DNA of 64,000 bases from Takakia lepidozioides (lineage: Eukaryota > Plantae > Bryophyta). The stretch's first letter is position 1; the number at the start of each line of letters is the position of its first letter. Of this stretch, positions 5,005 through 37,610 are shown one piece after another. The stretch covers positions 49,414,001 through 49,478,000 of the forward strand of contig CM060731.1 of assembly GCA_030704615.1 (NCBI GenBank). The letters are read 5' to 3'. The notes below the pieces were generated by a model, which searched no databases, was not told the origin of the DNA, and worked only from the letters and a program-made list of their open reading frames with translations. The translations under genes and the position numbers were made by a program.

Positions 5005-7401
5005 ATGAGTCGGGGGGTCGTTTTGATGTGGGTGTTGGTGGTGGTGATGAACCATCTGCAGATTGTGTGTGCTCAGGGGGTGGGAGGGCTTGCAGTAGTG
5101 AGCAATTCGGGTGAGGAAGGTGGTGTGAGTGAAGGGTTCTCGCACACAGACACGGCCACCACCTTGTACTCTTCCGTCAACTACCTCAAGTGCACTTCGG
5201 ACCACCAGGTTGCTCCGACCAGCACCCAGGAAGTGAGTGGCCTCATCAAGCTGCACGCAGCAAGCAACAAGCCTGTCAAGATTCGGGCCACTAGGCCCGG
5301 CTTCCACAGCAGTGCAGGCTTCGTGTGCTCTGGAGGAAGGGACAGCAGCAAGAAGGAACACAGAGAATCGGACAAGGACCCGGGCGGTGCAGCGACGTCG
5401 ATCACGGTGCTCCTCCATCTCATGAACCGCGTCGTGTCAGCTGACGCCGAGCAGCACAGGCTGACGGTAGAGGCGGGGATGACGCTGCTCGACCTGGCGG
5501 ATGCTGCCGAAGCAAACAGTATGTCAGTTCGTGCTGGCGCGTTTTCCATTTACGGGAATTTGACAGTTGGCGGGGTGATCCTGGCCTCCGCACACGGATC
5601 CGGGCTTGGAACTCTCAGCAGCCTGCGCGATTTGGTGACCAAGGTAAAGTGGGTGAATGGGAGGGGAGACATAATTGTCAGCGACTCAGCGACGGAAGCT
5701 GGGGCAAAGGAGATGAATGCCGTGGTGGCTGGATTGGGATTGTTGGGCATCGTTACGGAGTTCACTCTCCAGCTTGAACCCCCCTCTCGAACCATTGTGG
5801 AAACTCGAAACGGGTTGGACGATACAAATATTGTGTCTGACTTGAAGAAGATGTTGGAGGTTGAGACGCCTCATGTCATTGTTCACTGGAGACCTGACTT
5901 TGGGACGTACAGGGCGACAATGTGGACGCAAGTGGGGAGCGACGTACCACGTCTTGGAGGATCAGAGCCAGCATTTCGCCCAAATGCAAGGTGTATGTAC
6001 TTGAGTGTTGTGGATGACCAAATCGCAGGCAACTGGAGTGAGCTGATGGCTGCTTGGGAGGCAGACCCTGCGGAAGAATCAGCCACCGCTGACAGGCTGA
6101 ATTCAGGTGATTATCGGTCTTCTCTCTCATGGCTCTGTCCTCTGGTATACAACGACATTTCAACCACAGCCATAGCCAAAGACTTCTTTAAGCTTTCCTG
6201 CAACTTGCAATTGATCCTGAACCCGATCCTGAGCAGTTGATATGCATTCATGGGAACCCAGCGAGCCTGCTCAAAATAGGGAACGGGCATCTCAATTGTC
6301 CTCCATCTATGATCACTCATGGCCGGTTAGATCTTGGCTCGAGCGATCAGGCCCATCGTCAAACTGGTGACGACCAAACCCTCCTATCCGGACATTCAGG
6401 GAACTTTCTTGTGCATCCGATGCTTCCCATGCTTAACCATTGTTCTAGGGATACATTAAATCCATGGAGATCAATTCAATGCTTCATAAGAACTGATTAT
6501 GTAGTAGAACTGGGTTACTCAAGTTGTTCTCACTTACCAATATTGTAATTCATGGGTAAATCTTGTTGGCCACACAGGTGCCTGCGCAGCTGGAAAGATT
6601 ATGAACAGTCTCCCCATATTCATGGATGGGAATGGTACCCCCATCCATCATGCAGCGACTATTCCAACCAACTACGCAATGCTATCAGCTGAATGCAGTC
6701 CCAAGTGTATCTACCAGCTTCATCACATGGGCACCTTCGCGGAAGACATCGAGTTCACAATCAAAATATCCCAGCTGGAAGATTGGGTGAAGGATGTGAA
6801 GTTTATTGTCAAGACAGAGCTTGACGAGATCCAAGCTCGCCTCGACAAGCGGTACGGCAAAGGCAAGGTCACAAGGTGCATGCCTCCAGGGTATTTCTGG
6901 CTACGTTTTGGCCAAAGCTCAGAAAGTCTGCTTTCTACAAGCGCTGGCACCGAGAATGTAGTGTTTGTACAATGGACCTCCCTTCATTCGGCGCTCATCC
7001 CAGGCAAGCCTGCCAAGCAATCATCAATTGTTGAGACCATTGAGCAGCTGAGTTTGTGCAAGTACAAAGCTCGCCCACACTGGGGGAAGAACCACGAGCG
7101 CACGTTCCGCCACCCCGAGTGCCATGTGCGAGATAACTTCCCTCCTTCGAATTTTGAGCAGCTACTCGAGATGCAAGAGCACCATGACCCACAAAAGCTT
7201 TTTGAGCCTGAGCTTTTCAGCCATGTACTGCAAAAGAGTGGCCCTGACTACTCTGATCTTTGTACCCTACATTTCTGGTGCTACTGTCGGGAGGATGCTC
7301 ACTGCCCCCATGGCCATGCTTGTCAGCCATCCCCTGCCTTCCCAGAGTACAAGGTCTGCAAACTAGTCGAACCTGTTGGTGCTGGACATGACGAATTCTG
7401 A
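5005..7401 (+). CDS. L-gulonolactone oxidase-like FAD-dependent oxidase (FAD_binding_4 plus ALO domain); exons 5005-6106 and 6578-7401
   Basis: Signal peptide; APTSTQEV..LI, LTVEAGMTL, LTVGGVILASAHGS, GLGLLGIVTEFTL, ARPHWGKNH, DPQKLF and a Cys-rich tail like plant GULLO; the GT-AG intron 6107-6577 joins the two ORFs in frame. Confidence 0.88.
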
Positions 7402-10830: not shown

Positions 10831-12051
10831 GCCATAGAGTACATGGCAAGGGTGGATGAGGAAGCCCCTCGGATGTGGAAGGAAGAGGAGGATGCACGAA
10901 CCAAGGACATCATCTTGCCCAAAAAATCGAAGAGGGTAAAATTGCCGACCTTGGTGATTGAGCAAGCGCATGACTTCATACTGAAGAACACCTCATCCAT
11001 ATATGAGTGGGAGGCAAGATACAATAATCTTGTTCAGCAACGAGAGGAGGAGACGCTTGCATGGAGGCGGAACCATCCAAGGCCGGTTACTAGACGCCCA
11101 CGACGAGGAGCGGGCCGCCAGAATGTTCCTTCACAAAATTTGCCCATGGAATTGCAGCCTCTAAGTTCATTCCAACAGTGGCTTCGGACTTCAGTTTATG
11201 ACGCCGTTGCTCAAGGAGAGGTGGTTTCAGATTTGGTGCAAGACATTGCAAGAGGCCCATCTCAATTCGCGACCTCATACACGGCGGTTTGGGTTCACTG
11301 TCGTCATTTCCGCATTCGTGCTCTTGACATGAAGCACAAAACAACCTTTGATTTTGGCTTGTGTGCCACATATTGGCAAGACTCCGTGTGGGGCAAGGGA
11401 GATACACGACCTGCTATGAGCAAACTTGAGTACATTGGAGACCTTGAGAGTATACTGCAACTTCAGTAGACAAGGTACCGGCCTCTTCTCTTCAAAGGAA
11501 GGTGGTTCCAGCCACATCTTGTAGGGCCCTCCGCAACACTAGTGCAAGATGATTGTGGTTTCATGCGCATCAATGCAGATAGGCTCAACCCTACTCATCG
11601 TCCCTCCGATGAGCCTTTTTCACGGCCTTCAGACATGGAGCAAGTTTTCTTCTCCGATGACAAAACACGAGGGGGGAATTGGAAGGTGGTTGTGCATGCT
11701 CAGCCAAGAGGAAGACGTATTTATCATGGTCTCGGATCTCCATGGGGTGAGGCAATTGCGGTGGACGGAGAGACTGGTCATAATGATGCTGATGATGGAG
11801 GTTGGGTAGAGGGGGTAGAAGAGGATGATGACGCCCCGGACAATGCATCTTGGACCCTATATGATGAAGCTCTAGAAGATATGGATGTTGGAGAAGGAGA
11901 CAAAGACACGGCCATTGACAACGAGGTGGAGGATGATTTGGAGGTGCCTTTTGAGGGCCGGGCCATTTATGACGATGACTCCGATGACCAAGAAAACTTG
12001 CAGCTTGATGAGGATGAAGAGGCTCTGGATTATGATGTTCAAGTTTATTAG
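10831..12051 (+). pseudogene. C-terminal part of CACTA TnpD transposase (DUF4216-like region plus acidic tail), inverted relative to its N-terminal part
   Basis: SYTAVWVHCRHFRI, YIGDLESILQLQ*, LFKGRWF, QDDCGFMRIN, DEPFSRPSDMEQVFFSDD..WKVVVH; begins AIEYMARVD, which continues QEAMFY at 13275. Confidence 0.8.
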
Positions 12052-12289
12052 ACACAAAATCAAAGCTACATGAAACATTCTCGCACTGAACTGGACCCAT
12101 CCCTTCGATTGATTGTACATGTACATGCATATTGTACTTTATTTCTATGATTCATCAAATATGGCTGTGACTGCTAGTCTTTCAAGAAAGAAGGCAGAGA
12201 CAATGAATATGTTGGAGCAACACATACAGATGTGGTATCAAGAGAATTATCAAAATGAATGTCACAATCTACAAGAAGGTCCACAACAA

Positions 12290-12337
12290 CAAGCCAAACC
12301 ATAAAGAAAAACAAACACCCTACCCCAGTACCATAAG

Positions 12338-12381
<44 letters not shown>

Positions 12382-12860
12382 CAAAGGCCCTAAACCTAAA
12401 CCTAGAAAGCCCTGCCGTCGCTGCCTGCAACCCCCACGCGTCACCACCTGCGAGGTGGTTTCTAGGATTTATGAGGCCGGGGGTCGCAAACGGCAACGGC
12501 CAGCCGTCGCAAACTGTGACCCGTTTGTTTTTTTGCAAGAATAGGGTAGTCGGGCAGTTTGCGACGCCCGGCCGTTGCAGGGGCCTTTTGCCCTTCATGC
12601 CACCATGCACGGCCTGGCGTCGCAAGAAAGAGCTGCGATGAAAGAAATGGCAAGAAAGGGTTTTTATTCTCCGGCGTGCGACGAACGGCCGTCGCCAGAA
12701 ATGGCTGCCTTCTGCCCTTCGCTGGGGGCGATGCTTGGGCATCGCACGGAAGGGCTGTCATTTGCCTCGCCGCCTAGCCCCGGCGCCAGGTGGCAACCCG
12801 CGGGGTTTGACTGCGACAGCCCGACGTCGCAGACACGCTTCACGGGGCAATGGCACCATT
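12290..12860. repeat. CACTA subterminal repeat block (GCGACG/CGTCGC motifs) after a poly-A tract
   Basis: Near copy of 19290-19620 (CCCAGTACCAT..A(n)..GGCCCTAAACC..GAAAGCC..GCCGTCGC). Confidence 0.75.
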
Positions 12861-13274
12861 GCTAAGGGAATCCACCCTACAAAGCCCTCAACACACTCCC
12901 TCTCAATACCTAGAGCTATGGAGGTGAGAGAGGCTCATGGAGGCTCCACTACAAGAAGATGAACCCTCCTCAACACTCACAAGGGGCAAACCCATCCCCA
13001 TGTTCCAAGTGAGGTTTGATACCTCACTTGGCATATGAGACCAAATGAAGTCCCAACACACAAAATACAAATATAAATATCCAAAATATCCTAGTTAACT
13101 AAAAGTAGGTAATTCTAGTTAACCATGACTAAAACCATGTCACACACATTACTACCACAGTACAACCTGACAAGATTTGAACACCAAACCTTATGATTTT
13201 TCATTGTTCTTAACCACCACACTACCCACCACTTTTTACAAACCCTTGCACACTACAGCAAATTGGGGGGGTTA

Positions 13275-16200
13275 ATAGAACATAGCTTCTTGCAACGTAT
13301 ACCCCTCCATCATGCTACCCTCCGGGTGCGCCATTTGTCTTACAAATCCTTTCAAAGTCTTCATATAACGTTCAAGGAAGTACATCCACCGAAAATGAAC
13401 GGGGCCGACAATCGAAGCCTCTTCCACTAAGTGCACTACCAAGTGCACTTAGATGTCAAAGAAGGAGGGAGGAATGTGCATCTCCAACATATACATTACC
13501 TCCGCCGCCTCCTTCTTCATGCGTGGAAAATCTGCTTCTTCCAACTCTTTGGAGCAAATCCACCGGAACAAGCCTCCCAATCTATAGATTGTCTCACGAA
13601 CCTCGGGAGTCAATGTCCCACGTACTGCAATGGACAAGATGTCTTGCAATAGATTGTGGTAGTCATGAGACTTCAAACCATGGACCCCGTCTTCTTCGCT
13701 GAACTTCGTACGGAGGGATGACCCATAACCAGTTGGTGTTCGGACAGCACATATGGTGGCTATCACTTTCTTGTATTCCTCCTTTGTCCATTGTCAAGGT
13801 GCGCGCATATACTTCCACCCTACAACACCCTTTGGGTCCATACCATTTTGTTCGGCCCATAGATGGCGCATGCGACCCTGCTCCTCAAGCTCCTTTCTAA
13901 CACCGAGAGAATCTCCTTTTGTAGCCACTCCCTTCTTTGCCGGCGTGCCTTGAAGTACCCGAAAAAAGGACGAGCAGACATTCTTCTCAATATGCATGGG
14001 ATCTAGAAGATGACGAATCTTCAGGTCCTACATATATCCCCACCCACAAAGACTTACACAAATTGTTTTACGTGAAAGTGACAATGCAACGCATACCAAA
14101 TGTGCAATATCACATGCATGCATAGGGATATTGACGGTGTTTTTGTGGAATATGTACCGCCCAATATGGCAACTCGTAGAAGATTGAAAGTCGTTTCATT
14201 AGGCATGTCCACTTCACCGTCCGTGCCCGTATGGGCCTCCTTCCATCGGTCTTCCCAAAACTGCCCGGACGGTGTCATATGGGGGGGGGACGTACTTCCT
14301 CTTTGCCATCAAACAAGTGTTTCTCTCTTCTTCTCCATCGATGGCTCATAGGAAGAAATTTGCGGTAGTTGGGATACACCATCTTGTGAAGATGGCGGGA
14401 GCTATGTGCATCAAGATCATCGCCACAATGCAAGCATGCATGGTACCCTTTGGTGCTTAACCCCGAGCAAACAGTTAGTCTTGTACTACACATCCCGCCA
14501 CATTAGCAAAAACAAAAAATTGTCATGTGCATGGCCCATAATGCCATCTACCCACTACGGTGCACAAGACTGTCGCCGCTACTTCAATCAATCCCAATCC
14601 TCATCGATATTATCCGGCATTGACAAGTGAATGTACGCGGGTTGTTCATGGGGAACATAATATACCTGGATAATCATGCATTGTCCAAAGCAAGATGTCT
14701 CTCATCTGAAAAGATTGTCCGGCCATAGGGTCAAGTGAAGCATCCAATGTCGGGACCCCCTCCATAGCTCCTTAAGTTCATCAACAAGAGGTCGCAAGTA
14801 CGTGTCCATGTTTGCCACTTGTTTTTTCCCTATGAGACATTCACATCATTGTTTCAATGCTCCACCAATATGCAAATTATACTACAAAATGAATTACACG
14901 TCTTACTCCATGATTATGTCACTCATCAATCTTGCATCCGAATTGCGTCAGAGATCAGAAGTTTAATGTAAAGTCTAAGGCAATAATAAACATGAAATGA
15001 GTACACTCACCTGGCACAATGGCAGCCAACATGATATGGCATTTTTTTAATTGAAAGATACGGAGGGATGTTGTAATTCACCATGGTCACCGGCCAAGTG
15101 GAATGACTACATGACTGGACAGAGAATGGGTTGACCCCATCCGAGGAGAAGCCGAGGTGGACATGTCGTGGGTCCTCCAAGAGAAAAGGCCACATCTCTT
15201 CAATATGCCTCCATGCTTGTGAATCTTGTGGCCCGCACACCTTTCCCGGGGGGGCTCCGATGCGAGGCGTGCCATCTCATGAGTCTGGCCAATTCGGGGC
15301 TTCGGTACTGTGCCCTCAATCGCGGGATGATCGGAAAGTAATGCATTTTCTAGGATGAAATACCCCACGCCCCCCACATGTAATCATCCCATTAGCACAC
15401 ATAATACAACACCCTTATGTCTTTCCTTTATGCAGCCTCTCCCTCATTTGGGTGTGAATGGTCAAAACCGAACGTCGCTCCTTCCACTCCTCACTCACTC
15501 CTTCCAAAACCACAATCAGATCTTGCATGAGTACTACTCTCTAAACCCTAAACTTTGTGGAATACACTTTACATACATTGAGAAGATTAAAGAAAGTAAT
15601 CTCCATGCGAGGGGGAATGGCGCTTATACCTTGCGTGGTACTTTTTTCCCTTGGACATCATCCCGATATCGGTCTTTCTTGCACTTTGGGCACTTGGTGA
15701 GATGCGAATCCTCTCCGTAGTATAGGGTTTTATCACATGGACATGCATGAAAAATCTTATAGCCCATCCCCACAGAGTCCAAGACTTCGCGCGCCTCTTT
15801 CCGCGACCGTGGCATCTTGGGTTTCAAGTGTGGAGCAAGGATATAGTCTGCAATAGTTCGCATTATGGCAGACATCCCAACATTACTTATGCCAAATCGA
15901 ATTTGAAGATTGAGCAAAAGTAAGATTGTTGAAAGTCGACTCACTTTCGCCCCTTCGTACAAGGGAGTTCTCGCCTCCCTCTCCATGTCATTTGAGGGGG
16001 CCATTTCAGGATCATCGATTGGCCGGGTTCCCTCTTCATGGGATGCATCAGCGCCCACATGATGCATTAAGAGATCCTCCATGGCTTGCACATCCTCCTG
16101 GTTAATTCCATGCTCATTGTTGTTGTCACTGTCACTATCACTGTCATCATCATCGTCGTCCGGTACCGTGGGGGCGGCGTCTCGCCCACGGCTCCCGCCT

Positions 16201-16614
16201 GATGTACTTGGGTTGTTTTCGGATGGGGTGCCAAGAGAAAAGACCGGGAAGGGATGGACAAAGTCCTGATACGAACAAATGAACATAGGGACATATATTA
16301 TAATGTGTCATTGCAACCATACACTTCATTATAAGCGAAATGCAAACAACAACCTTCAATGTGTGTGTGCATCAAATATGTCATTCAATAATTACATGTA
16401 TGTGCGCAACGTACACGCATGCAAAGTTTCAAACCCAAACAAAATCATTTGCCCCCCCAATGACGCATTCACCCTATCAACCAATTTTTGTTTATTAATG
16501 TGAAAGAAAATCCTCTCATGCCATTGCACCCAACAAACGGATGTGGCTCAAGCTTCATTTTTTCCTACATGTGCTTAAATATGTGTGCAACACCTGTACA
16601 AAGATCCAGCAGGG

Positions 16615-16651
<37 letters not shown>

Positions 16652-18973
16652 CCCAACGACGCACTCACCCTTGCACCAATTTTGAATTAAATCGAATTTA
16701 AATGAATTTAAAATAAATATTTGCATTTAGAAAATATATGATTGCGGTTTTGAGGGGCGTAATGATTTTATTTTTAGCTCTATTTTGTTCTGTGACATCG
16801 GGCTTTGCACCACTACATCCATGCAAAAAATGGAAAAAAAATAAGTGTGTTTCTAGGGTCACTTTTGCAAAACTCTCTATGAAGAGTGCATGAAGTTGAA
16901 GATAACTCAACTTTGGAGTGCAAATGAGAGAACAAAATCTGGTTATGGGTCCAAATGACTTTTGTTTACTCCCAAATTTTGCACGCACATTGCATATGCT
17001 ATCATTAAGCATATGGCTTGAAAATGGAATAAAAAAAAAATCATCTGCAGGCGAAACACAATTTTCCGTCTCTATGACACGTAGCTGCGTTCAACACTAG
17101 AATGACCCATTGAATCAACTTGGTTCAAGCTCATATTTGGTCCACATGTGCATAAGTATGTTTAGATCACATATGCAAAGTTGCAACCCACACGAGCAAC
17201 AAGAAAAAATTTTACATCAATCGATTAATCGGATGTATACAAAGTACATCATGAGAATATCTACAATGCCCCTCTACGCGATCCCTGTCTCAAAGGAACC
17301 CTATTTCTATCATACACATCCCACTCACGCTGTAATCGGAGGTCCCAATCATCCCGGGAGAACTCGTATGATGCAAATAGTTCGCTGCCAGCCCTAATAG
17401 TCCTACTAGCACATGTCATCACAAACATGTGCATCCCCTCACAGTATACTGACGTATGACCACAAAAGCTCTCATGCCCATCGCTTCGCTCGTCCCATAC
17501 TACATTGGTTCTCCTAGGATGACCAAAAGAACTATTGACCAGCCCAGCAACATTGCCGAAGATGTCGGGGTCACCATCACAAAATCTGATCTCAATGGGA
17601 GACAACCCCCGTCTACGTACATCCTGTCCGTTGACACACAAAATGTAGGGTAGGATGTATGGGGCTTCGAGGCGTAATGTACGGAACTCCGCGGAGGTGT
17701 AGTATGGACCGTAGTAGGGAAACAAGTCCACCATGTTGTTTCTCCGAGGAGGAACCACAATATCATTGACCGTGAATAAACCCCGACCCATAGCAGGGTC
17801 TGTAGCGGCTCTCACAACATACCGTCTCCCCCAATACTCGAACTCCACATTTTCTCGGATGGGGTGGGAGGGTCGAGATGATTCCCCCAACAACGAGGCT
17901 GGACGGTCCTCAGTAACATAGTCCTATGCGCTTCCCATCGGGGGCGAGGATCCGGCTCAGGCGCCCAAGCCGAAGGGAGGAAACCTAGGGCGAAGCCGAC
18001 CCCTCCTAGGGGTTCGGGGGGCACATGCACGTGGAGGTGGTGGTGGTGGAGGTGGAGGTGGTACTGCTGGCGGAGGAGATGAAAGTGGAGGTGTTGAAGA
18101 TGTAATGTCGGGGTACACGTCCGGATCAGGCAAAGAACAGACGGGGGGGGGGGCAGGCACAATCAGGGACCGCCTGAGGGAACTGGAGGGGGGGGGAGGC
18201 CACAATCAGGGGACCGCCTGAGGAAACTGGAGGGGGGGGGGGGGTGGGGCCTGCTCGTCGCCGGCCATAACGCCTACGACACCTACGATACCCCTCGACC
18301 CTACGCATCTCATCTACGTGCTGCTGGGGGAACCAACTGGTCACATCGGGCACATGCTCTGGCACAAATTCTGCAAGTAGACCGGCGCAAAATGCCTCCT
18401 GTGCAATGTGATTGCGAGCTTGGGCATCAAGTCGTGGCTGCAATGTGCGTAGTGAACGACGCATCAATACTTATGTCGTAATTTGATTCATGTATGCTTA
18501 CCAATCATACTATATTATTAGATAAACCTAAATGTACCTTAAATGAATGTTAATGAGAGGGTGGGAAAAACACTCACCTTTGCCGCATCCGCAATCTTGT
18601 TCTTCTTGTAATGTTTTTCGACAACATGCGGTCGCCGCCTCGGTGGTCTGGTGCCGCCCGGCGGTATCCGTTCCCAACACTTAGTGCACCAACACTCAAT
18701 CCTGTCGGGGGGGGTCAAAGGTGGACGTGGTTGGACGGGGTGGCCCGCGAGGGGCAACCCGCGGCGCGCCCGACTCGATCCCGGAGTGTCAACATCCTCC
18801 GCATCACCTGAAATTTGGCCCCGGTCCCTTCTACGATTGTGCCCGGCAGCCTGTATTGGATCAGGTGCAATGGGTGGCTCCTCGCCACGAAAAATGGTCG
18901 CTCTAGGGCCACAATCGATATGTGGTACTACCTCCCCATCCTCGAGGGAGACGGGTCGATGTTTCCTCACCAT
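13275..18973 (-). pseudogene. CACTA TnpD transposase (Transposase_21/DUF4218-like), multi-exon, with stops and frameshifts, broken at 13275
   Basis: Exon 1 has CWCTKC..VEKH; then HACPCDKTLYY..CPKCKKDRY, DPRHVHLGFSSDGVNPF, STWPV..NYNIPPYL, DPMHIEKNV, GLKSHDYHNLLQ, PPSFFDI, WMYFLERYMK, PEGSMMEGY. Confidence 0.9.
17261..18467 (-). pseudogene. SET-domain (protein lysine methyltransferase-like) cargo ORF in TnpD intron 1; the SET part 17261-17893 is open, the upstream Pro-rich linker has stops and frameshifts
   Basis: MGRGLFTVNDI, FPYYGPY, DGDPDIFGNVAGLVNSS and ASRTIRAGSELFASY follow the order of SET motifs GxG / YxG / RxxNHS / ELxxDY. Confidence 0.75.
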
Positions 18974-20039
18974 CCATCCTAATTAACACACACCACCAAC
19001 ACTTTCATTTCTCAAAAACCGTTGGCAAAAAAACCCTATGCCTCAGCCTCGGGGCTTTCAAAATTGGTAACCAAAGGCGGAGCATCCCTATGGTGCTAGA
19101 GCCCAAGACAATAAATCCTTCCTCTCGTTCTATCTTCAGGATGCCCACACCATGGAAAAATTTGTTGAGACCCAGCGCTTTGCGATTATCAGATTGAACC
19201 ACATTTTGGGTATGTGAATCCTAATTACACCGTTTATCCTTTTAACCCCAAGACCCACAACCAAAACCGCCAATCCAAAACCCAGCACCATAAAGAAAAG
19301 CAAACACCCTAACCCAGTACCATATGAAAAAAAAAAAAAAAAAAAAAAAACTAAGAAACCCAAAAGGCCCTAAACCCTAAACCAGAAAGCCGGCCGTCGC
19401 CTCCTGCGACACCCTCGGCGTCGCATTTGACGACGAGTTTTTTTTTTATTTTTACCTGGGGTCGCACCCTGCGACGGACAGCCGTCGCGGGGGCGACGTG
19501 TTTTTTTATTTATGGGGCCGGGGGTCGCAAGAAACGACGGCCAGCCGTCGCAAACTTCATTTTTACATTTTAAAAAAGGCGGGCGCAGGCGTGCGACGGC
19601 CGGGCGTCGCACGTGGGCGCCGCGTTTTTTTTTTCCCCTAAGTGCTTGAAGCATCTCTTTCCCCTCCCGTTTTCGTTTGTTCTTTGGGGAGAGGTAGTTC
19701 AGAGAGTGGGGTTTAGGTGGAGGAGAAACGCACCTGCTGCTGAGCCCGAGGTGGTCGCAAGGCCCCAAGGAGTTTGCCCCAACGCCGCTCCAACGCCCAA
19801 GGTAAGCACCGCCTCCTCCCTCACTTTCTGTCTTTCTTTCTTGCCCTAAGCACGGGCTGATGTCTCTCTCCCCTGTGTGGTAGGAACGCCGCGCAGAGGC
19901 GCGACCTAACGAGCTGAAGAGAGAGAGAGTCGTGGTGAGCGGGGGAGAGACGCCCTGCAGCGGCGGGGACCCGCGCCGCTGGCAGCCGCGACAGCACCGC
20001 AGCAACTCGCTTCAAGCACCAGCACCAACACCAGCAGCA

Positions 20040-21410
20040 GCACAGAGGTACGTCAGGGAAATTGCACTCTCTCTTTCCTCTCTGCTTCTGTTTACTGTTC
20101 AAAGGTAGTCTTCCTGCCCTGACTTTAAATTTAGGTCTGGTGCCAAGAGTGGGATAGACCCTTGAGCGCATCCATGATGTCCTCCCCCATGTCACAGACT
20201 GGAAACAGGTTCAGGGAAGTTTTTCCTAACTTCATTTTCATCGGACAATTTTCTGGTAACAGACATGGCTTTGGACACTACACTCTCTAAGTCAGGTTTA
20301 TCCAGCAAGGTCAAGACTTGCGGGTCCAGATTCAGATCCTTGAGAATCTCTTTTACTCTCTTCTCCCAGGGCTCACCCTGACAGGGCGGTCCTGTTTCCA
20401 AGATATAGAGTCGATTAACTTATGATATCTGGTGTTGGACATATGTTGCAGCTGAACCCACCATCTGACCTTGAATTTAGGGTGTCGGGAGCTTAAAAGA
20501 GAGCAACACAGAAGAGAGGGAGAGAGAGGGAGAGAGAGAGGGAGTGAGAAGGAGACATCAGGGGGCAAAAAAGAAAAGAAAAGAAGGTGGGGGGGGGGGG
20601 GGGGGAGTGACTGAGCAGCTGCTGCTGCTCAGTCACTCCCTCCCCCCCCCCACATTCTGTTTTTTTCTTTGTTGCCCCCTCTCTTGGGGAAACAAAAGGG
20701 ATAGATCCTACCTCTGTCAGGGGCTGACGTTGGTAGTAAGACTTACCTTCACATATAGAATTAATCCGGGTTTTCAAGATATCCTCTACAAATCCCTTCA
20801 CACAAGCATCAATCTGCTGTGTGTGAGATGCCCAAAAACTAGGCCTCAGAAGGGGCTGGGCTTTTGGCTCAGCCTCAACTTTTTCAAAGTTAGTAAACAG
20901 AGGTACATGCACAATTCTCTTGATAGATTTGAAGAGAGCGTCTCTTTGGTGAGAGAACCCCGGACAGTGTATCAGAAAATGAGTACTGTCTTCAAATTGC
21001 CCACACAACGGGCAATTGCGCTCTCTTTTTCCTCTCTGCTTCTGTTTGCTGTTCAAAGGTAGGTTTCCTGCCCTGAGTTTAACTTTGAGGTCATCCAAGA
21101 TGTCCTCCCCCATGTCACTGACTGGAAACAAGTTCAGGGAAGTTTTTTGCCTAACTTTATTTTCATCAGACAATCTCATGGCAACAGACATGGTTGGACA
21201 CTACAGCCTCTAAGTCAGATTTATCCAGCAGGGTGAAGACTTGCGGTTCCAGGTCCAGGTCCTTGAGAATCTCTTCTACTGTCTTCTGCCAGGACTTAGC
21301 CTGTTTGACAGGTTGGTGGGCGGTCCTGTTTCCAAGATATAGAGTCGATTAACTTAGGATATCTGGTGTTGGACATATGCTACAGCTGACCCCACCATCT
21401 GACCCCCCCC
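20040..21410 (-). mobile_element. Non-LTR retrotransposon (LINE) 3' fragments, partly tandem-duplicated, inserted in the CACTA right arm
   Basis: KLRAGNLPLN..RNCPLCGQFEDSTHFLIHCPGFSHQR is a C-terminal CCHC typical of LINE ORF2; 20060-20470 is similar to 21010-21400. Confidence 0.7.
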
Positions 21411-21479
21411 CAACCCATTTTTTTTCATTGTTGCCCCCTCTCTCCCTCTGTCTCCCTCCTCGGAATTGGCCGGTTGCAT

Positions 21480-22135
21480 CAGTGTTCTTTTCATGATTTT
21501 CCATCTATACCAAATGGACTCTAAAAAGGTATTTTCACCTGACTTGTAAAGGTTTTCTATCCATACCGGAAGAATCACCTGGGTGGACAGTAAAATACCT
21601 TTAAAAATGACCTATAAATTTTCATTCCTCTTTTATTGACTTTCATCTATATCAGATGAGTCACCAGAGAATGAGGAGTTACCTCTGTAGGGGTTATGAC
21701 ACTGACATCCTATCTATAATTTTTCCATCCATGCCGGATGAAAAATACCAGGATTTGAATTCGTTTTATTCCCCCTTTATGCTTTTTTTTCCATACGGGA
21801 TGAGGCTTTCTCTTAAGGGATGACGAATTACCTGTTAGGATGAGAAACCTCTGCCCTGGATGATGTATACTACTTTTTCATCCTGTTGATGGACCTCATC
21901 CAAATAAATGAACCTATTTATTTTTTCATCTGAACCGGATGAAAAAAGCAACTTATGATGGCCATGGAGAATTTTTTAATTACCCTTAATTATTGCTAAT
22001 TAAGGAGTGAAACCCTAACTCCTACCATATAATCTACTGTTTAAACCTAGCTAACGGATGACATCCGTCGGTTTTGTTGAGATAAAGGGTATTGATTATT
22101 CATCCTCCGGATGAAAAATCGGGCTCTGCCCTAGG
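21480..22135. repeat. GGATGA/TCATCC-rich dispersed repeat, probably a non-autonomous DNA transposon
   Basis: Many GGATGA/TCATCC motifs on both strands; no clean TIR or TSD. Confidence 0.3.
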
Positions 22136-25026
22136 GTGTCTCTCCCACTGTCAGCTGCACTCCTCGAGCTGCTGAGCTCGCGAGTTATGGCGTCTGAGCT
22201 CTGCTGCTACCCTGTCTGCTGCTTCATGCCGGACGAGCTCCTAGGGATGCGCAATGGCGGTGTCTTGTCTCTTCTCATTGAGCTTGCAGATAAGGATGTG
22301 TGCAAAAAGAACATATTGTTGCTGCCCGCAGCCCCGATTTTGGCCCGCTTGCTCCCGGTTTGACATGGTGATGCTTGCTTTTGACTTATCTTTGGCTGCT
22401 GCTGATGGAGCACTTTGGCCTGACAGCCTTGTCTCATGCAACACTGCATGTGAATCCTACCCTGTCTTGAATCTTTGACAGCTTTGCCTGTGGATTTTTA
22501 GACTAGGTTCCCTTTTTTTTGGCCTTAAAAGAGGATTGATGGTGTAAGGGAAAAGTCATAGGTGGCTGTTTGGCTCTAAGGATGAGGAGACCTGAGTTTT
22601 GTTAAAGAAGACAGCCTGATAAGGCAATGACAGGCCGTTTTCAGACCTGGATTTGTTGTGGAATGGAGCATAGTGAGGTTCTATTTGCAAAACATGACAT
22701 TAGCCTCCTGTGAAACAATGACGGTAAGCTCTAAAGGACTCTGGCCAGTGATTATTTACTTTATTTTGCCATATGAACAGCCACCTGCATTGTTTGATTT
22801 ATCTTGGCCAAGTGGGCTTGGTCTTGGGGCACTCAAAGTGTATGTGTGTCCAGATCTGGATGCTGTGACAGGGCAAGCCTTTCTTCCATGCCAAAACGCC
22901 TTACATGATGTATATCTTGGGGCAACTGTACATGATGTAGAATGAAGTCGCAGTCAGTCAATCAACCCCAACCCCCCCCCCCACCAGGTTGCCCTTGCGA
23001 CTGCAGCACATCGCCAATGGCGACATGTTTTTTGGGCGGGGGTCGCAAGCAACGATGGTCAGGCGTCGCAAACCCCATTTGCGGGCGGCAACGCCCGACA
23101 CTCCCTGCGACGTGTTTTTTTGGTCTAGGGGTCGCAAGCCGCGACGCTCTGGCGTCGCGGAGACCGCCACCCTGCCCGCGCCACGTCTTTTATTATTATT
23201 AAATATAAAACAAAAGCGATGCCGGAGCGTCGCAACAACCCACGCCTGGGCGTGGCGGAGACCGACTCCTACTCCTGCTGTTTTTTTGCCACGCCCAATA
23301 GTCGTTTGCAGCGATGCACGGGCGTCACTTGGCGTACCACCCGGCTTACGCCACATGTTTTTGGGTTTTAGGATGGGACTCTCGGGCAGGTTAGAAAAAA
23401 AAGGGGATGCGACGCCGCGCCGGCGCCCCCACCAACGCCGTCGGCTGGAGGGCCGCGACGGCGAGACGTCGCTCGAAGAGGCCCCTGCCATCGGCGCGGA
23501 CGGCTTGAAAAACCGACGTCCAGCAGTCGCGGGAGTTGGGGCGGGGGCTCGCGACCCCCATACGTCGCATTTTTGCGACGCCCATGCGACTTCCGGGCGA
23601 CGGCCGTGCGTCGCAAATTCTGCGCCTATCGCGTGCCCGAAAAGGGCGTTTTCCCGAAGCTGCGGCGTGGCGCGGGCGTCGAAAAGGCCCCATTTTCCTG
23701 TAGTGGCAATAACTAATGCTTTATTATGTGCATATTGTGGGCCCCAGCAGACCAGCTTGTTGGCCAGACCCAGTAGCAAACTAGCCGGGTCCGGGTAGGG
23801 GCGCTCCCACCCTCCGCGACCTCCTCTGCCACACCGCAGGCCCCGCCGCAGCCACACGCGCGGGCATTCATGACCCTATTATTGCTCAATGAGAAGCGTT
23901 GGTTTCAGTTGGGAGTCCAATGGGCTTCTCACTAATAGATAAAAGGGACTTCAAGGCACATTTTGTGTGCTTGTGGCAGGGCCCACGTGTAACATAGAGG
24001 GTCATGAAGGGTGGGAGGGTCTTTATCAGTGTGCTGCTGCTGGATTGCCGTAGATAGATTTGCTAGACAATAAGCGAGTCCCCAATGGTAGGTCTCACCC
24101 AAAGGGGCCTATGACCTGCCAGGAGGCTCTGGTAATGGACATAAAGCATAAAGTATTTCCTTTGATTTAGAAAAGATTGGTTAGTATGATGGTTATGAGC
24201 ATTGAGTAAGATATATAATGCTTAGTGTTCAATTTTTGTCGAGTGCTATGTGTGTTGATGTTGAATCACTTTGTAAACTTGTTCTTTTTGAACTTTTCTT
24301 AAGCCTTTATTTTTCTACGGCGGGGGTGGGCGTGGTGGACTCGCCTTGTGTTTAGAGCCAGCCTTGGAGAGTGGACCAACGACGCAATGGCGTGAGCGTT
24401 GCACGTGAGCGCGCGAGCGTACGCTCACGCAGGAGTGACGTGGCGTGAGCGTACGCTCACGCCAGCTGACGTGGCGTGAGCCTGCACACATGCTGACGTG
24501 GCGTGAGCGTCATGTCAGCATGCTGATGTGGCGGTAAATGATGACGTGGCACTGTCCGTCAACTGCCACGTCAGCATTAACATGCGCCGCCTATAACCGT
24601 GGATGGTCCTATGACCGTGGAATTAATGCAGGGAATCTTGCCTAAATAGAATCAAGACGAGCGTTGAGGCCTACAATTGCAGCATCCAACATTGTGCAAT
24701 TACAAATGTTTGTTTCACTTTTACAATTACGAAGACGACAAAATATCCTCACAAAGTGTGCGCCATAAAGGCTGCCACGAGAAGACTTCTTCCCTCCTCA
24801 AATAACAATGAGAGTTATGATCATCTTCAAAAGATGATTGTAGTGCATAGCGACAGCAAGACATGTAGACTTCGAACGGTGCAATGACAAATGTGCACTA
24901 CCTAAAAGTTGTCACTCAGACCTCACTCCGTATAGTTGGAGGCCATATCATTGCACAGCCGACGAATTGATGTGAATTACACATTTCAAATCATGGTCAT
25001 CCACATACCACATTACATAGTTCATG

Positions 25027-28000
25027 CTACCCATGTGTTGTATCCCGCTGCAAAAGAGTATCGACCTCGTTGAAACTCATAGTGGCCTGGTGAATGAAGT
25101 TGTCACGTTTGGGATCGCAAACCATCCTCCTCAAAAATATGAAATACAAATGTTTGCAGGGTATGAATTTACCTCTCTTGCCCAAACTGGTTGATAGCAT
25201 ATTCACAAAATCAGGACATGTGCAATTGGGGAAATTGGAAACCGTGATGTCGTAGGTCCTGTCATGAACAGCAGATGTGGAAGTGATGATTGTGAATACC
25301 CGACCATATCCTGGATCGGGTACTTCCGTGGTGCTTCCGACACGAGCTTGGAGCATTCTTGCGGACTCCACTTTGCCAAAGTGTTCAGCGGTTGGAGGGA
25401 AACGCCGAACGAGCTTTCCATCTCGTTTGGTTGGCCACAAGTCAGGATTTGCCGGGGGGACCCGGGAGGACGCAGGAATAGTAGCACATGCATGGAGTTG
25501 GGGTTGTCTCGCAAGGGAAAAACCTGCCTCCTCCAGCATTTCAATCTCCTGAAAGCTGAGATGTGTTCCCACCTTCACGGGCCAAACGGTTGGAGGAGAT
25601 GGCTTCATCACTACGGAAGGACGCACAGTTCCATGCACACATCTGGCACAATCATCTGCGCAGAACCAGAACTTGTGGTTCTTGGCTTCTGGTTGACCGT
25701 ATGGACGCATCAAGCCCGTGAAAGTCGGAGCAGGAGTTCGGGCACCACCTCTGGATATAGATGAAGTGCACTTCTCGAAATTAGTTGCCCTGATCGCTGT
25801 ACATTTCACACGAGACCCGACACTTGTGCGTTCTATGTGCCAAACGTGGTCGGGGCATGCGGACTCAAGCACATCAAGGGGGTTGTTTCTCTCCTGCACC
25901 ATTTCAGTGGCACGGTTTGATGCTGGAGCTTGCCGTCGTGTTGGAGGTTCCTCCACAATGGAGGTTCCGGACACGGAGCTGTCATGCAGGGGAACACGAG
26001 GCTTCGAGAAGTTATCACGGTCTGCCCTGTGGGAATCTGAATCCGAACCAGGTGGAGTGTTCAATTTCCTCTTACAGGAGCCGAATCTCTCCTCCCCTTC
26101 AAGATGTGGAACTCTAGAAACAAGTGGCGTTCCCTGGGCATACATGCTCACCGCCCGTGCTATCTTGATTGGATCCCCAGATCTGTTTGCAGCACGCAAC
26201 ATCAACTCCTGATTTGTCCGGACCCTTGCCACCAACCCCACCTCGTAAGAAATCACGGTATCGGGTTTGTTGTTGCAAGGCACGTATCAAATCATCTGTT
26301 GTTGCCACATACAAATCCCGACCTCGTTTCCCAGACTGCTGCAACCATGCATTGTGCACAGTTTCTGCCAAATTGCAAGATGGCATGTCTGCCATTTCCT
26401 CAATGGACATGTTCTGCAAAGAGGATAACCACACTTCAGAATAGTGCACAGGAAACAACATAAAGAAAGCAATGAGTCAAAAATATGGAAAGCAAATGTA
26501 TGAATAAAGCATGAAATAGAAGCCTCGTACCATTGTCATGGCTGCTCCCCACTGTCTATACCGGAAGTGCCAAAACGCCAGCCAATCTTCCAATGCTCTC
26601 ATACTCTCAAGTGATGCAGCTCCAGAAGAGAACCACCAGGCACGAATTGTCTGGAACAAAGTGTCCGCCTCCTTCATTGTTCTAGCATCTTTGTACTCTT
26701 TGCACAATTTACGGTGCTGAGTCTGCATCTCTGGTTTGATGTCCGACTTTGTATGTTTTTCCAGAGATTGTGTCCAATGGAATAGACATGTACGCTCTCT
26801 TCCTGGCATAGGCACTTTTGGGTCGCCCGATCCGAAGACAATACGAATAGCATTGAAATTTGCTTGAGCACTATCCGCCATGAAACCTGCGAAATTTGGA
26901 GATGGCAGCCCATGGCAGCCCATGACACGTATCAGGGAATTCCACATGAGCTTCTGGGATTCCGTATCCTCGGATTGCATGTCACAAACTGCAATTGTCA
27001 TAACTCGTTGGTACACTGGATCGTAGACATGACAAGCCATTGTCGTCCAATCCTTCACTCGTTTCACATGATCAAACATAAGAAAACAGTTCTGCAAGTC
27101 CCCAGTCTTCTGCATCCGCTTCACGAGGCTAACCCCACTGCCCTCCCCAACAGTCGACATTTTGAAAAGAAAAACTTTGATGGCACCTTGACCTGGGAAT
27201 ACATTGTCCTGGATGTAATCGTACTTGCTCAGTCGTTTCAATTCCAAAATATTGTCTATGTAGCCTCTGATCCCAGAGCCCATTCTCAATGCATTGATCT
27301 GATGCCGAATGTTAGGTGAACTTAAAGTGGAGAAATGATCCATGACCAGGTCCAATGCTGCACCGTCAAGTTTAGTCCCCACAGAATCTCCTTCACTCAA
27401 AATATGGCTTTCCAAGAAGGACTTGCTTGCGCCAAGAGCAATTGCAGATGTTGTTGCGGATGGGTTTCTCCCGAACTCCTGTTTGATCAACCTCGATACT
27501 GTCTCAACACTCTCCCTGTAATCCCCCTTCGAGACAGGATGGTTATGGAATCCAAAATGCACACAAGCTCTCGTCATTGTATTCAAACGGTGGACAACAT
27601 AGTACATTCTTGCTCCGCAGAGCGCCAAGCAGGATGGCACAAGTTTGCAGAATTTGCAGACGAAAGTGTTTGCCGGTGGAGGGCAGTCCCAGGCTGAAAT
27701 GGATTCTCCGCCAGACCCTCCCATTCGCTTTGATTATGAACTCCAGACTGAAGAAAGTGTCTGCAATTCAAATTATCACACCTAAGGTGTCCATTGCAAA
27801 CTGTCCTCCTGAAAACAAGCTTGTCATCATTCTGAATATTGGATGTTTTTGTTCTGCACCACGGGTGCCCGTCGTGTTTCTTGTCCATTCCATGCATCAT
27901 GATTGTTACACCTCCAACTCGCGGAGGAGGAGGCAGCTCGAATAGGATATCGCCATCAAAAGTCTCCGGCAAGAACTTCACAGGCACCTGCTTCAAAGAT

Positions 28001-28542
28001 TCCCAATCAATTCCCCGCAACTCGCTTTTGAATCCAGCCATTCCTCCCATCGCCCGCAATTTTGGAATGACACTACAAATCTCTTCTTCATCAGCTTCTG
28101 CAACCACAGTAGGAAGGACTGGATTTGGAATTTCACTTATGTCATCATCGGAAGAATCCGAAAGCTCAACGATTGGAGTGGAGGAAGTCTGTTCTTTTTT
28201 CACCACCACCTCCCTCTTGTCTTCAACGACCGAAGCAGCAGTCCCGGGCGTCACATATGACCCAAGGGACTTTCGCCGAGGCTCTCCAAGTACTCTGTAT
28301 CGACCAGGACGCACTCTCCACTGGCTGATATGAGCCGTCTCATCACGGTTTTGGAAAGAATATTTCACCAACTTCCCTTTCAGATCGTAAACCTCTTTCT
28401 CCAAAAAGATGGAGCCATTCTGCAGCTGAAAACGGGTAGCCAAGACATGTTCCAGAACAATTGCAAATCCATTGTCAAGGACTTCCTGGGAGAACGGCAC
28501 TGGTTTGTCGTCTGAGAAGAACTCCGCTTCAGAGGAAGCCAT
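25027..28542 (-). CDS. MULE-family DDE transposase with N-terminal WRKY/GCM1-like Zn fingers and a C-terminal SWIM finger; one intron (26414-26530) and two single-base frameshifts (~27690, ~26213)
   Basis: DGHPW..CNGHLRCDNLNC, CKFC..C..HFGFHNHP, LMFDHVKR, FMADSAQANFNAIRIVF, CLFHW (CxxH), SCNLAETVHN, CTCPDF..PCKHLYF. Confidence 0.85.
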
Positions 28543-29397
28543 CTTCCTTCCTCGAGTATGTTTGTACCTTGCTATCGCAGATCTAGTGTAAATCGGTTTA
28601 CTGCTGTCTCCAGAACACAGTTGAAGAATGAGCAGAGCATATGGCGGAGGAAGCTCAGATAACGACTGTGCATATTCTGTTATTCATTCCAGATATGCAG
28701 CCGTCCATTTTAATTACTTTTCTTGTGGGCCCAGTGGTCAGAGAATCCATAGGGGCAGTGTCGGCAACTGTTAAACCGTTAATCAGAACCTCATCAATAA
28801 ACCCAATAACAAAGCCGACTTCCTGGAAGCATGCCACAGGATCCGAGAATGGGATTGCAGATTAAGTAAATGTATCTATATACTACTACCAATGATCATG
28901 CGCACCTGGAAAGTTCCAAATGTGCAACGAATGTGGGGTTTGGATAACAAGGATGACCGTGTATGATATTCCAAAATTTGTCATCAAACTCTCGTTCATT
29001 TATATTTATTTGTTTAAGACTGCGCATCAATTTCTGGGATTCGCTGTTCTTTTTAAATATTGAACCAGTTATAATTTAGAACACGCCGTTTTGTTTTGGG
29101 CGGCACACGTCAGACATCCATAACTGAATACGAACAGCTGTACACCAATTGCTGGCATGTGCACTAATATCGAAACGACTATGTGTAACGGTCACGCGGG
29201 AGGGAATCCGATGCTTCTAGAGACACGCAAGAACACAGGCAATCCCGCAAGAAATCGGGAGTCACTGCGTTTTTCTACTTTTCGCGCTTAGAGGGAGAGT
29301 GGTAGTCAAGCTGGAGAGGGTTCCTTCTAGAATACGAAAGAGAAGAAAGTCTCTTTATTTTACTTCCCTTAGAGAGAGACGCAGAGCAAGAGAGAAA

Positions 29398-32300
29398 ATG
29401 ACGAGGCGTCGTTTGTTGGAGAACACAGGGCCAAGGCAGCAGGTGAACGCGGAGACTGATTCACAAGAGCAGACGGAGACTGAGGCAGCGGCTGCGACAC
29501 AGCCGGCGATAAGAGTGCGCCAGCCTGTGGAGGCAGAGATGAATCGCAGGGACACTGAAGAAGGTGGAAGCACGCGGAACGCCGAACCTGAAGAAGGTCA
29601 AGAAACCCTTGCGCAGACAGAAACTCCAGCAGATGTGAGAGGGAAGAGGAAAGCTGCAGAAGGGGATCAAAGTTCAAAACCTAAGAAGGTGCCAGTAAGT
29701 TTTATCATATAGTCTATGTGATTGCCTTTCAAGGAGTCCTTCCTCTTCCATTCTTTAGCAGGAACTACTGAATCGCGAGCGTCGTTAACGCCATTCGATT
29801 CTGCTTATGAGATTTATGTACCTATGTGTTTGAAGAGAGAGTCTGCACTTACTATCCGCCCTAAACTACACTGAATGTCGTTGCCGCCAATCAGTTGCAC
29901 ATGTATGTCATTACACAACACCGATCCGGCAGGTCGTTATCTTTTGTGATTGTCGTTAACGCCGTTCGCTATCGCTCTCGCTTTTGTTTTGAATACGGAC
30001 AGTCTCGGCTTTGCTTGTGTAGATTGTGCTGAATTCTTTCACACCATTCATGGTGAGTTTCCTTGATACAGAGTGATGGTCGTTACCGCCATTCACTATT
30101 TGCAAATGACTTAGTCAGAACTGAATGGCATCGTGCAGAAAACTGTGAGGTCGAAGCCTACAGGATCAGAGGGGAAAGGATCTGGAGATGGGGACGAGTC
30201 CGCAAAAAGCTCAGAGAATACAGATGAAGCAGATGAATCCGAAGTGCACTACCTTGACAAGGTGAAAGAACTCATGTCATTCCAGAAGGTAAACTCTCAG
30301 GAGGTTATAAGGGACATGCTCGTATCTGGAGGGCGTCTGGACATACCTCTGTGCCGGATGATATCAATGCCTGTTGTGCGTCCACCTCTTTCCCATGACA
30401 TAACAAAATTGGAGAGTGATTTTGTGCATGGATATAGACTTGGTGCACAAGTTTTTTATGTGTCACTGACGGATATAAATGGGAAAAGCACATTAGTTTC
30501 TCCAGAGATCAGTGATAACTGGGATGAGTGCTGGAAAGATGCCAATGAGGAGTTCGAGCTGGGCCTCATGATGGGAAAGAACACCCAGCAATTTTGCAAC
30601 CACATGTTCTACGTCTGGGACGGCAACCACCGATTGCTGGCATGGATGGGATACATTCAGAAACACCATTCGAAAGACAAAGACAAGCATGTTGCTGTGG
30701 AGGCAATGGTTTTGGATCCAGGAAACGACATCGCTAGGCTTCTTACAGCTATGCACGACGTGAACAAGTAAGTCATCCAGGAGATTTGATTCCCTCTGTA
30801 GTGTCTTGTTGATCCTCAAAAAACAGTGTTAAGGAATGCAATGTTTCCAATGTTTTTGCAGATCGACAGAGAAATCGCATGTGACAACAAGCTTGGTTCA
30901 CACACTATTCCGAATTCAGAGGATTGGTCTGATGAAGCTGGATGATTTTCGGACAGTACTACCACCCAATATCATCAAGAAGTGCGAAACAGGAAGAGCT
31001 GCAGGCACTTGGTATTCTTTGACACGAGAGGCGTTTCTGGAGTACATGTATGCGGTAAGCCCGAGTCTGTAATCTGTTTACTTTTCGAATACATGTTTAG
31101 AGTCCCTTCGGAGCTAATCACTACTTGAATGAATGCAGCAAGAACTGGCAGAGGCAGCTGAGAAGGGAAAATCCGAATATTACCGCACTACACCAGAGGA
31201 ACTAAGGACATCAAAGGGTGTGGAAGCTGCAATAAAGAAGGAGTTTGAGATGCGAAGAACCAAATTGATGTCAGCCTTCGGAAAGCAGCTTAGAATAGTA
31301 GATCCTGGACTTGGTCCTGAGTTCCTTCAGCAGATCAAAACACACTATGACAAGCATGTGCATCCGGAGATGCAGCAGGAGAAATTGCACCGGCTGGCCA
31401 TATCGATGGTCGACCCACAAACAAAAATAAGGTGGCTGGAGATATGGAACTCAGATCAAACAGTAAAGGACTTGAATCAGTTCCCAAAGAGCACCATACA
31501 GCCTGGCACAAAGGTGGAAGGAATCAGTGATTTGGTGTTTGATAACTGGCTCCACAAGGCTACATTTTGGAGTCAGGTGTGTATTCGAACATGCTGTTTC
31601 TTCTCTTCAAGTATGTGATGTGTTTCTTTTTTGCAATTCTGACAAATATTCTATTTGCAGCTCGAAAAGCGCGCCGTCATTGTGCTGGATCAGACTTTGA
31701 AGGACCTGAACATTGCGATTGTTTCCCCTCCCCAAATGTCATTGGAGGCATACATAAGGAAGTGGAGAGGTCTCACCTGGAGATACTGTTTTTTCCGGGA
31801 GTTCTCCAAAGATGGTAACATTTTACGGTCCAACGACTTTGACAGTCAGGTTGGAGGAGAGTGGGCCATGATGCGAGTTGTGTACAGGTGAAATGTCATA
31901 CTTGAAACTCTACTGTTTTTTTGGGAAAAATTGTGGCTTCATATGGATTGCAATCTTAGATCCAGATTGAATGTCGTTGACGACATTCACTTCTTTGTCT
32001 GAGTCATTCTTAAGCGAGTATATGAATTCACCTGGTTAGGATCTAAGGGTGCAATTATATTGTCCCTGATTAGAATTGATAATGTCCTTGAATGGCGTTG
32101 ACGACATTCACATACGGAGTTGTTGTGTGGTCCTCAAGGTTATTTAAATTTTTGTAATGTCCATAGAGGATACAATGAGGGTTGATCACTTCATTTTGCT
32201 GAATGTCAATGCAGACATTCAGTTGTTCTGCATTGTTTTTTCCTCTTGCGATGAATATGGAGGCTTCATAAGCTCTGTTTTAAGAAATCCAAAGTGAATG

Positions 32301-36865: not shown

Positions 36866-37610
36866 CACTAGGGTAGCATGTGCCGTTGGCCCAAGTGTCC
36901 AGTGTCATCTAAGTCCAATTGCCATCCCCTATGTATCCAAGTGCGTCTCCTATGTCGAGGCCCAAATGCATCCTCTAGGGTAGCTTGTGCCTTTGGCCCA
37001 TATGTGAAGAATTGAAATCTAAGACCAAGTGTAATTTCTTATGTGTCCCAGTGCGTCTCCTACGTCGAGGCCCAAGTGCGACCTCTAGTGTAGCCTATGC
37101 AGTTGGCCCATGTGTCAAGAATTTAAATCTAAGCCCAAGTGCAATATTCTATTCATGTATCCAAGTGCATCTCTCATGTACAGGCCGGGCAAGTGTCCAA
37201 TGTCATCTAAGCCCACGTGCGCCAATCCCATATGTATCCAAGTGGGTCTCCTATGTCGAGGCCCAAATGCGACCTCTAGGGTGGCCTGTGCCGTTGGCCC
37301 AAGTGTCCAGTGTCATCTAAGTCCAAGTGCAACCGCCTATGTATCTAGAGACCCTCATGTTTGGGAGATCTAGGCCTAGGGCAGCCTGCGCCATTGGCCC
37401 ATGTGTTAAGAATTGAAATTCGTCCAATCCCCTATGTATTCAAGTAGCGTCTCATATGTCAAGGCTCATGTGTGAAGAATTGAAATCTAAGCCCAAGTGC
37501 AATTTCTTATGTATCCAAGTGGGTCTCCTATGTCGAGGCCCAAATGCGACCTCTAGTGTAGCCTGTGTCGTTGGCCCAAGTGTCCAGTGTCATCTAAGTC
37601 CAAGTGCATC
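36866..37610. repeat. Degenerate minisatellite with ~100-120-bp units
   Basis: Recurrent CTAGGGTAGC.TGTGCCGTTGGCCCAAGTGTCCAGTGTCATCTAAGTCCAA and GTCTCCTATGTCGAGGCCCAAATGC. Confidence 0.8.

Follow-up and report, generated by a model that had tools for sequence, protein, structure and literature searches.

A CACTA transposon family with a conserved exon of predicted SET fold in its transposase gene, and a predicted zinc-finger–SET isoform, in Takakia lepidozioides

The CACTA element and its transposase gene

The window, by which we mean the whole 64,000-nucleotide stretch of the Takakia lepidozioides genome that was analysed (contig CM060731.1, positions 49,414,001 to 49,478,000), carries a CACTA element on its minus strand (Table 1). 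Several features by which such elements are recognised are present: termini starting with CACTA (at 23705 and 13251), a TGC target-site duplication on both sides, subterminal repeats and TnpD domains. The transposase gene (TnpD) gives two Pfam matches to Transposase_21 (E 7.8e-22 and 3.1e-14), together with matches to DUF4218 (E 0.07) and DUF4216 (E 8.7e-5) that both lie below the cut-off. In the window, TnpD carries stops and frameshifts. Its frame is broken off close to the 3' terminus, at 13274, where it ends as ...AMFY, and resumes, inverted, as AIEY... at 10831. The 3' part has thus been excised from a point immediately within the 3' terminus and is found in inverted orientation some 430 bases beyond (10831–13274), with both termini and the TGC intact, reflecting either a local rearrangement or a misassembly. 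With its TnpD broken and rearranged, this copy is therefore not autonomous. A first-pass annotation of the same DNA had recognised no TnpA gene, and we likewise see no TnpA-type second frame in this rearranged copy, where only about 250 bases separate the DUF4216 stop (12051) from the 3' arm.

Table 1. Coordinates of the CACTA element and its genes in the window, listed from the 5' end of the element
Feature	Position	Strand	Remark
5' terminal inverted repeat, CACTACAGG..., TGC ahead	23686–23705	−	16 of 20 bases match the opposite end
GC-rich subterminal repeats, outer 5' arm (limits approximate)	22990–23685	−	repeat family D8
About 3 kb of other repeated sequence breaking up the 5' arm (limits approximate)	19951–22989		internal duplication, and match at 53771–54002; longest frame without a Pfam match
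Inner 5' arm	19287–19950	−	19287–19556 has 76–82% identity to 12298–12515 of the 3' arm
TnpD coding exon 1, 132 codons, CxCxxC...H finger (18694–18611), phase-0 donor	18578–18973	−	counterparts in L002 and L003
GT-AG intron of 140 nt, exon 1 to SET exon	18438–18577	−	spliced out in one X8 contig
Terminal SET exon: Pro/Arg-rich linker, SET domain (about 17878–17333), stop (17263–17261)	17261–18437	−	about 394 codons with one-base deletions allowed for
TnpD exon 2, 212 codons, phase-0 acceptor at 16265	15630–16265	−	donor at 15630 used in run X9
Later TnpD exons (Transposase_21, beginning of DUF4218), interrupted by stops and frameshifts	13274–15349	−	Pfam
3' terminal inverted repeat, then TGC	13251–13270	−	paired with the 5' end
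Displaced, inverted 3' part: TnpD remainder with DUF4216 (stop at 12051), then the 3' arm (approximate limit)	10831–12830	+	frame continuity

Exon 1 of TnpD encodes a putative zinc finger, the C, C, C and H of which are common to the window and to two metagenomic loci described below (L002 and L003); the structure model of the window finger is poor (pLDDT 67, pTM 0.40). An N-terminal transposase-associated domain (Transpos_assoc, PF13963) has been described as a feature of CACTA elements (PMC8978399). No Pfam match to this domain was found for exon 1 of the window, and its counterparts in L002 and L003 give weak matches (E 5e-4 and 1.3e-3, respectively). The first-pass annotation had placed a SET-like frame on the same strand as TnpD, between an exon 1 ending in the donor AAG/GTGAGT and exon 2. 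This arrangement is borne out: the donor is present, with its GT at 18577, and TnpD exon 2 starts at 16265. The start of the SET exon, left unplaced earlier, is an acceptor at 18437. Phase 0 is found at the donor (18578) and at both acceptors (18437 and 16265).

The SET exon: reading frame, fold and splicing

As assembled, the SET exon contains an open frame of 220 amino acids (17923–17261, minus strand), which includes all four motifs on which the SET assignment had been based—GRGLF, YYGPY, GNVAGLVNSS and RTIRAGSELFASY—and has no cysteine beyond the last of them, in agreement with the reported absence of post-SET cysteines. No second SET copy was found among the 1370 frames of the window. Two stops upstream of the open frame, TGA (17960) and TAG (17926), had been attributed to C-to-T decay. 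Comparison with public contigs (runs X1, X4 and X5 being DNA, and X8 and X9, from two studies, RNA by guess only) leads to a different explanation, namely that both stops are out of frame owing to one-base deletions. Contigs of all four runs X6, X7, X8 and X9 have an extra base at 17860, and contigs of X6, X7, X8 and of X1, X4, X5 have extra bases at 17961 and 17974/5; over the stop region, the X5 and X6 contigs differ from the window by zero substitutions and three gaps. Applying the three insertions takes the TGA and TAG out of frame and extends the open frame from 220 to 315 codons. With the five listed insertions applied, the exon measures 1182 nt, a multiple of three, and stays in phase all the way from its acceptor (18437) to the stop codon. 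One TGA persists where a proline tract is duplicated and flanked by long runs of G, and the frame of the linker is provisional.

All nine insertions that were inspected in the public contigs lengthen a run of the same base. The one-base deletions in the window SET exon are likely to be assembly errors, and they may otherwise be private to this element copy. Compared with public contigs, the window lacks single bases in many base runs across 17200–19000; this pattern suggests an unpolished long-read assembly and calls for caution over frameshifts elsewhere in this genome.

By sequence alone, the window frame is a marginal SET match: its Pfam SET hit (E=0.038) lies below the cut-off for that family, phmmer returned no matches to the PDB, and the PDB sequence matches of the SET profile have E values of at least 0.037. 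A protein language-model search retrieved SET clusters at 0.95–0.96, with giant-virus SET proteins nearest in feature space. A structure model built on a 54-row alignment (pLDDT 86.8, pTM 0.82) was compared by Foldseek, and every match listed is a SET protein. In a wider structural search, the best match is SET8 (Z 12.9, rmsd 3.3, 131 aligned), followed by PRDM5 (Z 12.7), Set1 (12.6), PRDM3 (12.2), PRC2 (11.9) and SET7/9 (11.8). A predicted SET fold for the window frame is therefore well supported by modelling. SET8/KMT5A, SET7/9, PR domains, Set1/MLL and E(z) share this fold with Z scores of 11–13 at 12–22% identity, and motifs I, II and IV align; the window domain differs from them in having no post-SET cysteines and NS in place of NH. 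No clear best structural match emerged among the named host subfamilies (SET8, SET7/9, SUVH, E(z), ATXR5/6, PRDM, Set1 and Set2) and, as the Z scores are tied across subfamilies, the fold gives no indication of the substrate. A viral origin of the domain, also considered, is possible without being favoured: viral models reach a TM-score of about 0.5, no better than cellular SET domains, and resemblance to viral SET proteins in features and fold does not establish common descent.

Turning to the active site, motifs were counted in 70 near-full cores from 160 collected proteins and the window, at about 35% overall identity. The GxG glycine is kept in 68 of these cores, the motif-II glycine in 64, the motif-II tyrosine in 69, the motif-III asparagine in 61 and the terminal tyrosine in 62. 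Motif I (GxG) and motif II (YxG) were aligned to EZH2 and, via the relative P0026, to MLL1; the terminal catalytic tyrosine (ELxxxY), which is present in the window too, was aligned to EZH2. The exception is the NH motif of active SET lysine methyltransferases, in which the asparagine is retained (61/70) and the histidine is replaced by serine (66/70), giving NS. The NH motif is described as essential for SAM binding (PMC12886896), and its replacement across the family raises the alternative of a catalytically dead SET fold that serves as a binding module or decoy, for example on histone tails or on host Polycomb or SUVH partners. SET proteins are known that act on chromatin without being active enzymes (PMC12886896). 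PR domains take second and fourth place in the Z ranking, and most PRDM proteins have no demonstrated activity (PMC13137591). However, the family retains GxG, the motif-III asparagine and both tyrosines at about 35% identity, whereas the inactive SET-24 has neither NH nor the tyrosine (PMC12886896), and PRDM9 is active despite a divergent domain (PMC6116924). A dead fold is rather unlikely in our estimate, and methyltransferase activity of this SET family is plausible from its motifs.

The first-pass annotation had further proposed an alternatively spliced zinc-finger–SET product, and the exon 1–SET half of this proposal finds support in contigs of the two putative RNA runs. A contig of run X8 joins 18578 directly to 18437, leaving out the GT-AG intron. 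The same join does not occur in the DNA runs X1, X4 and X5 (2497, 1393 and 40 matching contigs, respectively), a comparison made at a 92% threshold and hence applying to a near-identical join only. Contigs of X8 and X9 also hold the exon 1–SET join of a more diverged sister, with 30 letters replacing the skipped part; by eye, 19 of these align ungapped with the last letters of exon 1. Run X9 additionally skips a TnpD intron (15629–15350), and unspliced contigs spanning the exon 1–SET intron are present in X6, X7 and X9. Relative to the window, the X8 SET contig has eight non-synonymous and five synonymous codon differences, two conserved positions among them, and a one-base deletion in its tail, so the transcript may derive from a decayed copy.

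The other half of the proposal, a join of exon 1 to TnpD exon 2, is not among the joins listed in any run, which proves nothing because neither X8 nor X9 covers the start of exon 2, an effect due in part to the skipping of repeats. We infer this second join, and hence the word alternative, from splice sites whose phases are compatible, both in the window and in L002. Some Riccia gene models suggest a read-through SET–TnpD fusion, a reading that we rejected. SET is cut before the terminal tyrosine in those models, and the X8 contig passes the SET stop. We take the Riccia fusion models to be probable prediction artefacts.

A SET-carrying family and its exon layout

A phmmer scan with the window SET domain recovered 66 clusters at E<=0.001, 27 of them at <=1e-10; Pfam SET matches 41 of the 66 at E<=0.05 and 21 above its cut-off. 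Among the 30 of these 66 clusters that were looked up, seven name an organism, comprising Riccia sorocarpa (five), Ginkgo biloba (one) and Psilotum nudum (one), and none names a flowering plant. A word-seeded protein search with the single window frame found nothing, and no long SET–transposase fusion was found among proteins of 878–2505 amino acids, which is weak evidence. A similar finger lies ahead of SET in P0007, P0008, P0035, P0110 and P0134. In P0110 and P0134, finger and SET fall within one called frame, which by its sequence suggests intron loss. The Ginkgo and Psilotum proteins cluster with a large AT-rich subgroup of the SET family (P0089–P0157), many members of which lie on contigs of 10–40 kb.

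The exon layout recurs in distant elements. A locus scan with a narrower alignment (A2, the first alignment A1 being too diverse) identified three loci (L001, L002 and L003) among 66 pattern matches in metagenomes, with none among 50 in viral contigs or five in prokaryotic genomes. All three comprise a finger exon, a phase-0 donor, an intron of 111–156 nt and a phase-0 SET exon with about 35% identity to the window. In L002, these are followed by a second phase-0 acceptor and an acidic segment that ends like TnpD exon 2 (similarity E 4–8, not significant), after which the contig ends; the L001 and L003 contigs end ahead of any transposase sequence. In two Riccia proteins (P0025 and P0059), SET leads into sequence resembling TnpD exon 2 (E 5e-9 and 5e-6 when six sequences were compared). 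Between the window and L001–L003, identity is 0.46–0.58 at codon positions 1 and 2, which are conserved, and 0.24–0.30 at position 3, which is near random. In the host itself, 2497 contigs of the DNA run X1 match 1.8 kb of the element at 92–100% identity. The copy number is very high, though summed contig depth is not itself a copy number, and the contigs point to a large family of recent origin, with exon 1 and the SET exon both present.

These observations bear on the possibility that the SET frame is a piece of a host gene acquired in a single neutral event, now in decay and absent from other family members. TnpD is broken in the window copy, close copies show no clear purifying signal, and the window SET domain forms a long, isolated branch when 55 of the 70 cores are placed in a tree (without an outgroup, and leaving out 15 rows, mostly members of the same 90% cluster). 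Against this, 66 related clusters exist, the same layout is found in three distant loci, third positions have diverged with the motifs conserved, exon 1 is joined to SET in the contigs, the upstream stops are out of frame, and the copy number is very high. Neutral capture is thus largely refuted and, in our judgement, very improbable.

Proposed function, related systems and neighbouring features

We propose that exon 1 is shared, likely being spliced either to the SET exon in the first intron or to TnpD, and that one transcription unit would yield two proteins: a finger–linker–SET protein of about 525 amino acids and a finger–TnpD protein. The finger, with DNA binding assumed, would recruit the SET domain, either to the element or to the transposase, and histone lysine methylation at the element's own copies would keep them expressed and mobile. 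In the reading that we tentatively favour, and which we judge to fall a little short of probable, this CACTA family with its conserved SET-fold exon thus encodes a zinc-finger–SET protein, a predicted lysine methyltransferase, that marks the family's own copies and counters their silencing.

Two further readings retain an active enzyme and differ in its target or effect. The SET domain could methylate a non-histone protein, either TnpD or a host silencing factor, and thereby tune transposition. SET7/9 and SET8 are among the best structural matches, and a finger common with TnpD could pair the two isoforms; however, the top Z scores are tied across histone enzymes, and we regard a non-histone substrate as unlikely. 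SET enzymes such as SETD7 do methylate non-histone proteins (PMC13137591). The enzyme could also be chromatin-active and serve self-restraint, through a repressive mark that limits copies, or integration, through preparation or choice of target sites. Domains of PRC2, SUVH and NSD2 score as high as those of activating enzymes. The nearest clusters in feature space are the giant-virus SET proteins, one of which we take to be a writer of H3K27 methylation. The family is very abundant, however, a better fit with help than with restraint, and we consider self-restraint or integration improbable.

The favoured reading, self-directed histone marking against silencing, would give the zinc-finger–SET isoform the accessory-regulator role that TnpA holds in flowering-plant elements. 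This role is drawn by analogy: TnpA activates cognate Spm elements, acting via host DNA demethylases and leaving H3K9 methylation in place (10.64898/2026.08.24.746577). TnpA-like proteins are apparently confined to flowering plants, according to the available text of the same preprint. A more far-reaching form of the favoured reading, which we hold to be possible and rather doubtful, is that a CACTA lineage of non-flowering land plants (liverworts, whisk ferns and gymnosperms) replaces TnpA with a spliced zinc-finger–SET histone writer acting on its own copies, a writer whose active site would be of the NS type and whose lysine target might be unusual. If true, this would bear on how silencing is countered in lineages from which TnpA-like proteins are reported to be absent.

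Among the closest known systems are the En/Spm elements (maize Spm, Arabidopsis Spm1 and Spm3), which are alike in their CACTA termini, 3-bp duplication and TnpD domains. In Spm3, one gene yields both the transposase TnpD and the accessory protein TnpA by alternative splicing, which has been shown there (10.64898/2026.08.24.746577). The accessory protein of En/Spm is a tandem-HTH TnpA, whereas that predicted for the window is a zinc-finger–SET protein from an exon in intron 1, with no TnpA seen. An angiosperm CACTA survey lists TAD, Transposase_21, DUF4218, DUF4216, Transposase_24 and Peptidase_C48, and the word SET is absent from its available text (PMC8978399).

SET cargo is already known from other transposons. 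The red-algal Plavaka element likewise bears a SET domain on an EnSpm-superfamily element, in an accessory gene (PAG2) proposed to modulate transcription, a function described as untested in the available text (10.1101/2025.02.11.637652). PAG2 is a separate gene, combining SET with an N6-adenine methylase in a three-gene cassette, whereas in the land plant studied here SET occupies an exon nested in the TnpD gene and is joined to its putative transposase-associated finger; no match to an N6-adenine methylase was found in the window frames or in the 66 SET relatives. SET genes are also carried by oomycete HarbingerS and MuDR elements (PMC12730594) and by Helitrons as well as Plavaka (10.1101/2025.02.11.637652). 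Compared here through citing papers, HarbingerS, MuDR and Helitrons are likewise DNA transposons with a SET gene and differ in superfamily and host, and in having SET as an accessory gene rather than as a spliced isoform with a transposase exon. In the openly accessible literature searched, we came across no report of a land-plant CACTA transposase gene with a SET exon, or of its spliced form; the supplements of the Spm and Bostrychia preprints list accessory domains and may bear on this point. Further context is given in PMC11982613 and 10.1101/2022.10.24.513474.

In the literature consulted for this comparison, the SET cargo of other transposons has no tested function, and a spliced isoform makes the purpose of such cargo a directly testable question. 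The window isoform is defined at base level, with expression evidence, an abundant family and liverwort relatives. Element-encoded factors that act against the silencing of their own family are known from Arabidopsis, where VANC of the Mutator-type VANDAL elements is a DNA-binding factor that causes DNA hypomethylation, with experimental support (PMC12730594, 10.1101/2025.02.11.637652 and 10.64898/2026.08.24.746577). The corresponding role of the window isoform is a proposal from sequence. Both VANC and TnpA work via DNA hypomethylation; an element-borne histone writer, if true, would represent a different route.

Several other features occupy the window. A host gene on the plus strand (4930–7401), apparently of two exons, encodes an L-gulonolactone oxidase-like flavoprotein (FAD_binding_4, ALO; GULLO2-like), and long frames on the minus strand (25030–28683) probably represent a Mutator-type transposase with a SWIM finger (E 0.006). 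A small non-autonomous CACTA element with 30-nt terminal repeats lies at 45661–46511, flanked by TTC and TTT. The remaining features are repeats: a near-palindromic cluster of families D9, D10 and D12 (29872–32717), an array of units of roughly 100–110 bases (36815–37625), and a 54-base tandem array within a 275-codon open frame (52519–53052).
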